From positions 1 through 35,168 of the forward strand of contig JBHLRS010000023.1 of the NCBI GenBank assembly GCA_048882325.1: a DNA stretch of 35,168 bases, given 5' to 3'. The stretch is from Candidatus Thorarchaeota archaeon. GTDB taxonomy: Archaea > Asgardarchaeota > Thorarchaeia > Thorarchaeales > Thorarchaeaceae. Positions within the stretch are counted from its first letter, which is position 1; every line of letters begins with the position of its first letter. Below the pieces are notes generated by a model that saw only the letters and a list, made by a program, of their open reading frames with translations, did not search any database and was not told where the DNA came from. This document shows, piece after piece, positions 14,181 through 29,432 of the stretch. A program made the position numbers and the translations under genes.

Positions 14181-15320
14181 ATGTCAAGTAGGATTCAACA
14201 TATGAGATACCCCTTCTCACTTGAAGCCAGACAGGCATCGCAAAAGCTGGCTCGAGATCTGGGCGCTCTTGTTGATTTGCTTGAGGACCCAGAGAATCAC
14301 TATATTGTTAAAGCAGCAGAGAATCGGGTCTATGCCGCACTCACACAGTCGCAGATTAACTACCCGTCTATGGAAAATGAAAAGGATGTTCTGATTTACC
14401 CTACTGCTCGACTGATCGTGGAGGAGTTAGGTGTTCCACGACTCAGAGCACTTCAAGCTGAAGCTGAGTCAAAGGAGGCGAATCGACAACTGGACAAGGT
14501 GAAGGATAACAACTTCGTCATTGACCTTTGCGAGTCATCATTCAATTGGAAAGTTGAGTCAATGGGGACCCTCACCGAACGTGCTAAGCTCCCTATTATG
14601 CTTGGCACTTATGATTTGAAAATACGCTTTGAAAACTACCTTGAGGTCGCTCCTGGTTTCCATAGCGAGGAGTGGAGTCTCATCAACCGCTACTTGGACA
14701 AGGGCTGGATACCTATAAGACGTTCAGAGCTGGACCGACTCATCTCAGGCAAGTTTAGTCAGCTCATTATGCAAGGTCGGTTTGACATTCCAAGAATGTC
14801 TCAACGATTGATTGAAGCAGTCCAGAGAATCGAGGCTGAAACCAAGGGACGGATACGCCAGACTGAACCTGTGAAAATGACTGAGACCGTGTCCTCCGCT
14901 TTTCCCCCATGCATTCAGAAGATGTATGATGAATCAATCAGGGGGGAGGTAAACCTGTCACATGATGCACGGTTTGCACTTGCTGCCTTTCTTCTGAAGA
15001 TTGGAATGGAAGAACCTGAGGTACAAAAGGTGTTCAGCAGTTCTCCAGACAAGAATATCAGCCTCATTGATTATCAAATCAGACATATTGCATCGAAGAG
15101 GTCGATGGGTGTGGAAGATGCTGGTTACACGCCACCTGGTTGCAAGAAGCTGCAGGTCAACAATCTCTGTCCGGTGTATCTCGGTCAAGCCTTCGACCCT
15201 TTGTGTGAATATATCCTGAATCCACTTGGGTTCTATTCGACACGAGCATGGGAGATCTCTAATGGCATCGACGACCATTCATGGTACGCACGGAAACGAG
15301 ATAAGAAACAGAACTTCTAG
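14181..15320 (+). CDS. priL: DNA primase large (regulatory, Fe-S) subunit
   Basis: YPF..EA N-terminus, W.L.NR.L.KGW, FPPCI, LSHDARFALAAFL, YQIRHI, YTPPGC..L..NLCP...C..NPL; four Fe-S Cys present. ATG at 14181 follows GGAG. Confidence 0.95.
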   Translation: MSSRIQHMRYPFSLEARQASQKLARDLGALVDLLEDPENHYIVKAAENRVYAALTQSQINYPSMENEKDVLIYPTARLIVEELGVPRLRALQAEAESKEANRQLDKVKDNNFVIDLCESSFNWKVESMGTLTERAKLPIMLGTYDLKIRFENYLEVAPGFHSEEWSLINRYLDKGWIPIRRSELDRLISGKFSQLIMQGRFDIPRMSQRLIEAVQRIEAETKGRIRQTEPVKMTETVSSAFPPCIQKMYDESIRGEVNLSHDARFALAAFLLKIGMEEPEVQKVFSSSPDKNISLIDYQIRHIASKRSMGVEDAGYTPPGCKKLQVNNLCPVYLGQAFDPLCEYILNPLGFYSTRAWEISNGIDDHSWYARKRDKKQNF

Positions 15321-16150
15321 ACAGCACACCTCGAGTAGTGATAGAGATATTCTTGAGCATATCCAGCATATCTTCCGAAGTACTCCCGTGCTGCTGCAGA
15401 CTTCTTCGTGTATGACCTGCCAGTACTCGTGAAGATACCATAGTGCTCCTGAATCACACGTTCAATCCAGACGTCAATTGGAAACGCCTCGAGGAATCCA
15501 AGTGAGAACAGACTAACACAGTCTGCCACCTTATCACCCACACCATGCAGGCTCTTCAGTTCCCTTCGTGCAGCGAGATAATTCATTGACCGGAGTTCCT
15601 CCTCGTCTATATCCCCCTTCATAATCGCCTCAGTTGATTGCGAGATGAACTCAGCTCTCCATGCCAGACCCAGTTTCTTTAGATCTTTCACAGTTGCTTC
15701 AGATAATTGCTCAGGGGTTGGCATAGCATAGTAGACCTTTCCTCTGAACTCATATGGTGCCCCCCATTCTTCTCGGATTGATTGCGTCATTCCACGGATT
15801 GCGGGAACATTCTTCCAGACGGAGCAGAGGAAGGAAACAAGACAGGGGAAAAAGGGATCATTGATGATACGCAGGTTCGGTGCAAAGTCAATACTCCTCC
15901 TCATTATACCATCTCTGGAGATTTCCCGGTGAATCTGTTCAAGTGGGTCATGCAGCCTGAATAGTTTTGAAAGGTCCACATCACTGTGTGAGGTCTCATA
16001 GAAAATAGTGTCCTCTCTTTGTTCTACATATACCACCTGACCAATGTCCGCATTGATGTATCCCGGGCCCTCTTTGATCCAAGAGAAGGTCTGACCGCAC
16101 TCCAGCGTATCAAAGAGGTTGAAATTCTTCACCTTGAGACTTCTCATCAT
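15317..16150 (-). CDS. ogg: 8-oxoguanine DNA glycosylase/AP lyase (OGG1-like, HhH-GPD)
   Basis: FNL.DTLECGQ.F.W N-terminal domain, HhH LHGVGDKVADC, AFPIDVW, YAGYAQEYLY. Confidence 0.9.
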   Translation of the reverse strand: MMRSLKVKNFNLFDTLECGQTFSWIKEGPGYINADIGQVVYVEQREDTIFYETSHSDVDLSKLFRLHDPLEQIHREISRDGIMRRSIDFAPNLRIINDPFFPCLVSFLCSVWKNVPAIRGMTQSIREEWGAPYEFRGKVYYAMPTPEQLSEATVKDLKKLGLAWRAEFISQSTEAIMKGDIDEEELRSMNYLAARRELKSLHGVGDKVADCVSLFSLGFLEAFPIDVWIERVIQEHYGIFTSTGRSYTKKSAAAREYFGRYAGYAQEYLYHYSRCAV

Positions 16151-16243
16151 GACAAATCGAGGAGGTTCTTGAAATTAGTATTATGTTTTGGTTGTCGTTG
16201 TTTGATAGACAATGCTAAAACGAAAGACCTTGAAAGAGAATTA

Positions 16244-16310
16244 GCGGCAGTGATGAACCTCCAATGTGAGATTATGAACATATGATCGACCTAAGGGGTA
16301 TCTGAGCCGC
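16244..16310 (+). ncRNA. Candidate box C/D guide sRNA
   Basis: Intergenic, 67 nt. Perfect terminal stem GCGGC/GCCGC, C box GTGATGA 16250-16256, D box CTGA 16302-16305, degenerate internal D'/C' (GTGA or ATGA; ATGAACA or ATGATCG). Confidence 0.75.
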
Positions 16311-16315
16311 ACCTT

Positions 16316-16819
16316 CTAGTCTATCTCTGAAATGTCTGAGGATCTAGTTTTGACAATTTCAACAAGTGCATCAATCTCGTCTGGAGTGTAGATAGGTATG
16401 TCTATGCTCTGAACAGCTTGTCTATTGGACCAGCTCACTACAGCCTGTGTATTCACTGGGATGTCATCATGATCGAGCTCATTATCTCCTATACACCAAA
16501 ACTTCGGAATATCAGCAGACTTCATCCCCTCAATAATGAGGAACTCATACTTCAATAGACCAGCCAATTCATCAGAATGAACCCTGTCTTTGAGACCTCC
16601 TGATTTTCCACTAGGCTCTATGAAGATGGCCGTTGAAGCACCAGCTTGCATATGTCGCCACGTGTCAGTTCCATGACTCGGTCTGCGCTTGTGTATGGAG
16701 CTCTTGATGGTAGCAACAGAGTGTCCACTAATCACAAGCGACTTGATGATGGCTTCTATGAGCGTGGTCTTGCCTGTGCCTGAGTAACCGGAAACAGCAA
16801 ATACTCGCATTTTGTCCAA
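16316..16819 (-). CDS. mobB: Molybdopterin-guanine dinucleotide biosynthesis protein B
   Basis: VSGYSGTGKTTL, VATIK..H, GTDTWRH..AGA, LIIEGMK...PK. Confidence 0.9.
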   Translation of the reverse strand: MDKMRVFAVSGYSGTGKTTLIEAIIKSLVISGHSVATIKSSIHKRRPSHGTDTWRHMQAGASTAIFIEPSGKSGGLKDRVHSDELAGLLKYEFLIIEGMKSADIPKFWCIGDNELDHDDIPVNTQAVVSWSNRQAVQSIDIPIYTPDEIDALVEIVKTRSSDISEID

Positions 16820-29356: not shown

Positions 29357-29432
29357 ATCGGTCAGATTGCGGTTTAGTGGTTCATCACGCTGATGAGGTC
29401 GTTCACCATCCCTACTTCATCATCATCCCGAC
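29357..29432 (-). ncRNA. Candidate box C/D guide sRNA
   Basis: Minus strand reads GTCGGg-ATGATGA ... GTGATGA-accactaaaccgcaat-CTGA-CCGAT: exact C, C' and D boxes plus a 5-bp terminal stem. GAAAG-ca-TATTTAG (BRE/TATA-like) lies about 25 nt upstream. Confidence 0.8.

Follow-up and report, generated by a model that had tools for sequence, protein, structure and literature searches.

The spacer between ogg and mobB very probably harbors a gene for an archaeal box C/D sRNA of 67 nt, which would be transcribed independently and whose D guide is predicted to be a conserved orphan. The gene is located at positions 16244-16310 on the forward strand of the window, i.e., of the whole stretch of 35,168 nt that was analyzed here and that is part of a 3.6-Mb genome assembly of a Candidatus Thorarchaeota archaeon with 89 contigs. 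The evidence for the gene comes from the conservation of its boxes and the covariation of its stem in relatives, from a promoter-like motif at a fixed distance upstream, and from a nearly invariant D guide, for which no credible target was found in the RNAs that were searched.

The ogg-mobB Spacer Contains an Element With Box C/D sRNA Architecture

The element had been proposed in an earlier note made from the sequence alone, and its sequence, GCGGC-A-GUGAUGA ... CUGA-GCCGC, was recovered base for base at 16244-16310 (+). The flanking ORFs had been named ogg and mobB, which agrees with the domain matches of their products: the ogg ORF (15317-16150, - strand) encodes OGG_N plus HhH-GPD domains and the mobB ORF (16316-16819, - strand, stop codon at 16316-16318) encodes a MobB domain. 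The size of 67 nt, the location on the strand opposite to both flanking genes, and the end 5 nt before the mobB stop codon had all been given correctly. The start of the element lies 93 nt from the ogg start codon, whereby the sRNA gene is divergent from ogg and convergent with mobB. The designation as "antisense" holds for the strand but not for the coding sequence, since the gene sits in the spacer between the two ORFs.

The full order of the RNA is GCGGC A GUGAUGA ACCUCCAAUGU GAGA UUAUGAACAU AUGAUCG ACCUAAGGGGUAU CUGA GCCGC. The terminal stem is formed by the 5' arm GCGGC (16244-16248) and the 3' arm GCCGC (16306-16310). The 5' arm is followed by an A (16249) and box C, GUGAUGA (16250-16256), and the 3' arm is preceded by box D, CUGA (16302-16305), and followed by a pyrimidine-rich tract. 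The internal part consists of box D', GAGA (16268-16271), a D'-C' spacer of 10 nt, UUAUGAACAU (16272-16281), which would form the loop of a K-loop, and box C', AUGAUCG (16282-16288), a variant of RUGAUGA that is predicted to engage in K-loop pairing with D'. Between these boxes lie the D' guide region ACCUCCAAUGU with 11 nt (16257-16267) and the D guide ACCUAAGGGGUAU with 13 nt (16289-16301). Two candidate guides had also been listed in the earlier note, of which the D guide had included the dinucleotide 'CG'; this 'CG' is part of box C', AUGAUCG. The D' box had been read as GUGA at 16266-16269, which is an alternative register to GAGA at 16268-16271. With GAGA as box D', the corrected D' guide is ACCUCCAAUGU with 11 nt, and the corrected D guide is ACCUAAGGGGUAU with 13 nt. 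Archaeal guides normally have a length of about 12 nt, and the homologues of the element, which are described below, have D' guides of 9-13 nt and D guides of 12-14 nt.

The genome was scanned for the bare motif, i.e., RUGAUGA, 30-60 nt, and CUGA, enclosed by the arms of a Watson-Crick stem with 5 bp or more. The motif occurs six times in the 3.6-Mb genome, compared to one to four times (mean about 2.8) in six genomes simulated with a second-order Markov model, and thus argues only weakly against chance. Because the count is close to that of the simulated genomes, the motif by itself proves little, and it is the conservation that settles the reality of the element. An Rfam search of the whole window yielded no match at the gathering score. 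The best scores below the threshold were obtained for SNORD29 (15.4 bits, threshold 48) and sR49 (14.3 bits, threshold 50). A relaxed Rfam search led to matches with five box C/D families, of which four cover essentially the whole element (16245-16310) and sR7 covers 16246-16287, together with a weak mir-4510 match near the element; all of these matches are far below the thresholds.

The Element Is Conserved Within the Family and Its Stem Covaries

The 180-nt spacer was used as a BLAST query against 60 relatives. Nearly all same-genus genomes gave a match, and in close relatives parts of the flanks matched as well. In distant relatives, the match contracts to positions 94-160 of the query, which is exactly the 67-nt element. 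A covariance model was built from 29 copies and detected the RNA in 25 of 27 same-genus genomes and, for the whole family, in 44 of 86 genomes from 8 of 16 genera. In 26 other Asgard families, the model found the RNA in none of 125 genomes. At most loci, the gene is found on the strand opposite to ogg and 90-150 nt upstream of it, which also applies to loci at which the identity of Ogg has dropped to about 60%, and the usual order of the locus is priL-ogg-[sRNA]-mobB-ABC transporter. Several genera keep the guide at loci where mobB is not adjacent to the sRNA gene. As an observation on the neighboring gene itself, the closest relatives of Ogg (15317-16150) outside Thorarchaeota belong to Verrucomicrobiota (Chthoniobacterales, Spartobacteria) with 35-39% identity and not to other archaea, as judged from the best 80 of 562 matches in species-representative genomes.

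A comparative alignment of the spacer, as it had been suggested in the earlier note, revealed C/D boxes that are conserved and a stem that covaries across the relatives. The perfect 5-bp closing stem and the K-turn boxes claimed there are both present and are kept in the homologues, whereby the K-turn geometry itself is deduced from the sequence. Over 45 distinct homologues, 96% of the cells of the terminal stem are paired and compensatory changes occur in four of the five pairs; the covariation score of the stem was reached by none of 500 shuffles. Examples are the change from C-G to U-A in 10 sequences and from GCGGC/GCCGC to GCGGU/ACCGC. Boxes C and D are invariant across 48 copies (RUGAUGA in 48/48 for box C), and the G at position 6 of box C can pair with the C at position 1 of box D in all 45 distinct sequences.

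Both internal boxes are variants of the consensus, and their pairing fits a K-loop. Of the 48 homologues, nearly all have AUGAUCG or AUGAACG as box C' (GUGAUCG, UGAUCG, and AUGAUCC occur once each), and box D' reads GAGA in this genus and GUGA in most other genera, with a few variants in single sequences. Position 1 (G) of D' pairs with position 6 (C) of C' in 44 of 45 sequences. The combination of D' position 2 and C' position 5 is A-U in 24 sequences, U-A in 6, and non-standard in 15 (mostly U.U, as read from the alignment rows). The terminal GA of D' is invariant, as required for sheared G.A pairs, and the GA dinucleotides of both D' and C' are likewise invariant. Compared to the usual arrangement, the G-C pair between D' and C' is inverted, and the 10-nt spacer is at the long end of the range. 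The sequence of this spacer is conserved within the genus and in g7/g8 (UURUGAAC); in g6, g9, g10, and g35 it is replaced by other purine-rich sequences, whereby the length of 10 nt is kept. A single-sequence fold had also offered an internal hairpin (GAUUAUG/UAUGAUC) together with pairing between the two guides, which on inspection of the alignment is not kept in other genera.

A Promoter-Like Motif Lies at a Fixed Distance Upstream of the Element

Most of 27 upstream regions contain a motif of the form (G)ACAA/GAAAG followed by CTAAAA, GTAATA, or CTCATA, which is located 23-25 nt upstream of the 5' stem. In the window, this BRE/TATA-like motif is GACAATGCTAAAAC (16207-16221, + strand) with the CTAAAA core at 16215-16220, and this core ends 23 nt before the first base of the RNA. 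The motif is common to several genera, and the remaining spacer is not conserved. The TATA box of archaeal promoters is usually located at about -26, and since the distance of the motif matches this position, it may well act as the promoter of the sRNA gene. For the tandem second copy L112b, no clear promoter motif was found upstream.

Another motif that is conserved across genera is found on the other strand (16169-16185; GAAATGAGTATTGTG on the + strand, CACAATACTCATTTC on the - strand), at a further distance of about 45 nt upstream, and precedes the start codon of ogg by 20-35 nt. This motif probably represents the TATA region of ogg, which would result in a very short ogg leader, and the promoters of the sRNA gene and ogg would then be arranged divergently, back to back. 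Directly downstream of the 3' stem arm, a T/C-rich sequence is present in most homologues, and this pyrimidine tract is a possible termination signal. The window contains another box C/D sRNA at 29357-29432 (- strand; AUGAUGA..., GUGAUGA...CUGA), which has canonical C' and D boxes and does not have the GACAA-CTAAAA promoter motif.

As for the protein partners, the genome encodes fibrillarin (289 bits) and Nop5 (226 bits) by adjoining genes on contig C46 and contains two genes of the L7Ae family on contigs C25 and C58.

The D Guide Is Nearly Invariant and the D' Guide Drifts

The D' guide is hypervariable, with lengths between 9 and 13 nt in the homologues. Within the genus alone, there are four types that differ also by indels, and only a 'CC' is kept. 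The first six bases of the D' guide in the window, ACCUCC (16257-16262), have the same sequence as the 3'-terminal anti-Shine-Dalgarno core of the same-genus SSU rRNA (..GGAUCACCUCCU; L050, L051), and other members of the genus have CUCCU or UUCCU at this position. This identity may be a coincidence in a pyrimidine-rich spacer.

The part of the D guide beside box D, AGGGGUAU, is almost invariant across 7 genera, whereby variation is restricted to position 9 (U/A), position 10 (U to C), or, in genus g10, a missing G. Counted upstream from box D, the fifth base is G16297; thus, the expected target would be 5'-AUACCCCUUAGGU-3', in which the last C of AUACC is predicted to be methylated.

Some copies of the family have the same backbone but carry a second type of D guide, ..GGUGAGCAU/G, and are referred to here as beta paralogues, whereby the copy in the window is of the alpha type. 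A beta guide is present in the same-genus genome G025 at the syntenic ogg-linked site (L030:1501-1565). In G065, it is found in a tandem second copy (L109:1631-1695), where alpha and beta are about 60 nt apart. Genus g6 has beta paralogues at unlinked loci (L118:1207-1272, L119:1211-1276, and L121:1205-1270), and the ogg-linked g6 copies are alpha-like. By raw pairing count, beta guides have a candidate pairing of 9-10 bp with the A-loop (helix 92) of the LSU rRNA, 5'-(G)UGCUCACCG-3', and the nucleotide to which they point, when the N+5 rule is applied, is the equivalent of E. coli U2555. In archaea, the A-loop is known as a hotspot of methylation (PMC4644070). Owing to this match, the family apparently includes rRNA guides of the canonical kind. 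The D guide of the window's own copy differs from the beta guide and has no A-loop match.

Searches for a Target of the Two Guides

No SSU or LSU rRNA gene was found in the window's own assembly, and therefore the rRNAs of relatives with the same guide were searched. The set comprised 11 LSU rRNAs (five from the same genus, six from other genera) and 4 SSU rRNAs (same genus). In these 11 LSU and 4 SSU rRNAs, no canonical match was found for the window's guide, and none that holds across genera. In mature rRNA, neither guide gave a gap-free match that comprises 8 bp or more and has a Watson-Crick N+5 pair, be it for the window's guide or across genera; the only matches with 8-13 pairs lie in the SSU intron of G014. 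For the D' guide, no rRNA site was common to the genomes, and the best matches were no better than those of shuffled guides. When each genome was searched with its own guide, the best rRNA matches were mostly no better than shuffled ones, with the exceptions of G014 and G005. Site scores summed over a ten-genome LSU alignment did not yield any site that tracks the guide variants, and the pre-rRNA flanks (1 kb on each side of three LSU and three SSU genes from four genomes) did not contain a common site.

Several individual rRNA candidates were rejected. In the SSU intron of G014, the D guide forms 13 pairs, including 3 G.U (p < 0.003), with a site in the intron ORF of that genome only, and the match was judged to be due to chance because of multiple testing. 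At SSU position ~635 of G005, there is a match with a nominal p = 0.023, in which one position is mismatched, three pairs are G.U, and the methylation position itself is a wobble, and which was also judged to be due to chance because 12 tests had been performed. The type III D' guide of G017 and G012 can form 12 bp with SSU helix 44 just 5' of A1492/A1493, at p = 0.22 compared to shuffled guides, and this site is also unmatched by the window-type D' guide in G005's own SSU rRNA. In the LSU rRNA, AUACCCC at position ~139 (7 bp) does not follow the changes of the guide in g9 or g10, and GUCUCUUAAGGU (E. coli ~1921-1933) forms ten pairs with the 'U' variant of the guide, whereby the window variant is mismatched in the middle of the duplex and has a G.U pair at the methylation position.

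Some features of the rRNA genes were noticed along the way. The intron of the G014 SSU gene (L053:972-1868) is roughly 900 nt long, and its translation reads like a LAGLIDADG-type ORF. The SSU gene of G012 (L052) has a 28-nt insert near the 3' end inside GUCGUAA|..|AACAAGG. The LSU genes of G009 (L049) and G033 (L129) are about 800 nt longer than the others, and the SSU and LSU genes of G017 are unlinked, about 70 kb apart on one contig.

The earlier note could not assign a convincing rRNA target and considered the RNA to be a possible orphan or tRNA guide. The suspicion of an orphan holds, as systematic searches of rRNA, tRNA, stable RNAs, and whole genomes did not yield a credible target. 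The tRNA alternative found no support in the detected tRNAs of G000 and G001. Neither guide outperforms shuffled guides in the detected tRNAs and tRNA introns of this genome or in 5S rRNA, SRP RNA, and RNase P RNA, and the same applies to the tRNAs and tRNA introns of the 97%-complete genome G001 (27 tRNAs). Only 27-31 tRNAs each are detectable in these intron-rich genomes, and thus a target may be missed rather than absent. Many tRNAs of these genomes have introns and an encoded CCA. One tRNA gene with long insertions (G000 C20:13757-13894; Pro(UGG) by ARAGORN) contains CUAAGGGGCUAUGAUGG, which resembles the D guide of the sRNA in sense orientation and is followed by a box-C-like UGAUG.

In 28 genomes of the genus, the exact 13-mer target occurs only in the gene's own complement and in two isolated matches. 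Genome-wide, the best matches of the guide lie in ORFs. A perfect 13-mer on contig C7 is located on the antisense strand of an ORF; a 15-pair match in an ORF on C1 and a 12-mer in an ORF on C30 are on the sense strand, yet neither of them is conserved in relatives. Intergenic matches on C9 and C29 do not have an RNA-like context. On present data, with the window's own rRNA unassembled, both guides are orphans. Orphan guides are common in archaea and account for 28% of Pyrobaculum guides (PMC6009581); having a target therefore defines a functional guide and not the RNA class.

Alternative Explanations for the Conserved D Guide

It is unlikely, but has some probability, that the RNA is part of a box C/D-type RNP that does not guide methylation of a stable RNA. 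With the same low probability, the near-invariant D guide might recognize a conserved RNA other than rRNA or tRNA (an mRNA, intron, spacer, or ncRNA) or act by means of its quasi-palindromic structure. Such a role is suggested by the conservation of the D guide across 7 genera without a canonical target, and dual-orphan families with conserved guides are known, as in the case of Pyrobaculum sR43 (PMC6009581). However, a conserved non-rRNA target of an archaeal C/D sRNA has never been shown (PMC6009581). Candidate targets would be an mRNA or an unknown ncRNA, but also the transcripts of the convergent mobB gene, whose 3' end would be fully complementary. For an mRNA, it counts against the idea that the best sense-strand matches, i.e., those on C1 and C30, are the ones that relatives do not conserve. 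As mobB is convergent on the sRNA gene, its transcript may extend full complementarity to the sRNA at its 3' end. The first T-tract downstream of the mobB stop codon is located beyond the sRNA. However, several genera keep the guide without an adjacent mobB. In the structural variant, the quasi-palindrome CC(C)-N2-4-GG(G) of the D guide, which is present in every genus, would form a mini-hairpin or a dimer. In 39 sequences, 96% of the D-guide region is pairable as a 4-bp hairpin, with a C-G, U.G, U-A series and a change from U.G to C-G elsewhere, and the beta paralogues, which have a clean rRNA match instead, are not palindromic. The covariation of this hairpin is not significant, though, as only one double change occurs and values as high as the observed ones were obtained in 46-70 of 500 shuffles.

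It appears quite unlikely that the D guide is a conventional rRNA guide that pairs in two blocks with 5'-UUACCCC-A-GGGGU-3' of the LSU rRNA (E. coli 2437-2449; edge of the peptidyl-transferase center at H73/H74). This pairing would consist of 6-7 bp, a small internal loop, and 4-5 bp, and the methylated nucleotide, with the same slight probability, would be the equivalent of E. coli 2441. The UACCCC of this site pairs with guide positions 2-7 in five of five same-genus LSU rRNAs, the downstream GGG(G)U can pair with CC(U/C) of the guide in every genus variant, and guides that end with GUAA (G035 and one G077 copy) lengthen the match to UUACCCC. In addition, the LSU region 2437-2449 is a modification hotspot. 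On the other hand, in rRNA of 4.6 kb chance alone would give 6-7 contiguous pairs, and the shuffle test for this site gave p = 0.12 and was based on one genome only. The invariant A at guide position 8 faces an A of the target, and the pairing is below the published threshold of at least 8 bp (PMC6009581). Equal or better scores are reached at AUACCCC (LSU ~139, 7 bp) and at ~1921-1933 (10 pairs, two of them G.U), and none of the three sites tracks the changes of the guide in g9 and g10.

It is extremely improbable that there is no + strand RNA gene at all and that a chance C/D motif lies in a minus-strand element (a mobB terminator or regulatory DNA of ogg) or in a decaying pseudogene: the motif does arise by chance about 3 times per genome, and the element abuts the mobB stop codon, but the limits of conservation coincide with the ends of the stem, the invariant positions are the + strand box nucleotides for the G.A pairs, the stem covaries, a + strand promoter motif is present at a fixed distance, the element persists without mobB, and in a pseudogene 8 guide bases would not stay nearly invariant across genera.

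Proposed Biogenesis and Function of the sRNA

We therefore return to the gene for an orphan box C/D sRNA as the preferred explanation. Its transcription, RNP assembly, and methylation activity are deduced from the sequence features described above. Transcription would start at or near the first G of the terminal stem, from the BRE/TATA-like promoter that is back to back with the ogg promoter. The RNA is predicted to fold into a terminal K-turn, composed of the stem, box C, and box D, and an internal K-loop, composed of D' GAGA and C' AUGAUCG. K-turn and K-loop would each be bound by L7Ae and would recruit Nop5 and fibrillarin. The D guide appears to be under strong purifying selection. Its most likely role is to guide the 2'-O-methylation of a target of the sequence 5'-AUACCCCU(U/A)AGGU-3' at the cytidine that faces G16297. 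As this sequence is absent from every rRNA, tRNA, and other stable RNA that was searched, the D guide would be a conserved orphan. The D' guide seems to be free to vary and is probably only a spacer of the right length.

Comparison With Known Archaeal sRNAs and Significance

The RNA resembles the archaeal dual-box C/D sRNAs, such as the sR RNAs of Pyrococcus and Pyrobaculum, in its RUGAUGA/CUGA boxes, its short terminal stem, and its internal D'/C' boxes, and also in its guides of about 12 nt, its total length within about 60-70 nt, and its independent intergenic gene; L7Ae, Nop5, and fibrillarin are likewise encoded in this genome. In contrast to these sRNAs, the RNA has AUGAUCG as C' and GAGA/GUGA as D', an inverted G-C pair, and a D'-C' spacer of 10 nt, and neither guide has a detectable rRNA or tRNA target, nor is there an Rfam match at the gathering score. 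Among the Pyrobaculum RNAs, sR43, sR50, and sR108 are box C/D families in which all members are dual orphans (2018, PMC6009581). The RNA described here is similar to sR43 in having canonical boxes and a guide that is conserved across species without complementarity to rRNA or tRNA and without a conserved mRNA target. Unlike in sR43, only the D guide is conserved and the D' guide drifts, and paralogues with the same backbone match rRNA. Moreover, the lineage is a mesophilic Asgard family, whereas the host of sR43 is a hyperthermophilic crenarchaeon. For the A-loop (helix 92) of the LSU rRNA, the predicted targets of archaeal C/D sRNAs are U2552 (five species) and C2556 (two species), as described by Dennis et al. 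(2015, PMC4644070). The beta paralogues share the helix 92 site with these sRNAs, yet they point to the equivalent of U2555 and not to U2552 or C2556, and the alpha copy of the window differs from them by its D guide and the lack of an A-loop match.

A full-text literature search for small RNAs of Asgard archaea and Thorarchaeota did not yield a paper dedicated to this subject. There is essentially no catalog of box C/D guide RNAs from Asgard archaea, and the family presented here adds one well-supported gene together with its promoter motif and its phylogenetic limits. As a kind of RNA it is ordinary, and the understanding of how such RNAs work is unchanged. The family also suggests a turnover of guides on a fixed backbone, whereby an alpha orphan guide and a beta guide with the A-loop match occur in tandem in G065 and are swapped at the syntenic site in G025. 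The Asgard archaea are the lineage closest to eukaryotes, in which non-canonical functions of snoRNAs are known. The conserved orphan guide provides a concrete target sequence to look for, 5'-AUACCCCUUAGGU-3', and if this target should belong to an RNA other than rRNA or tRNA, an archaeal box C/D RNP with a conserved target of a non-canonical kind would have been found for the first time.
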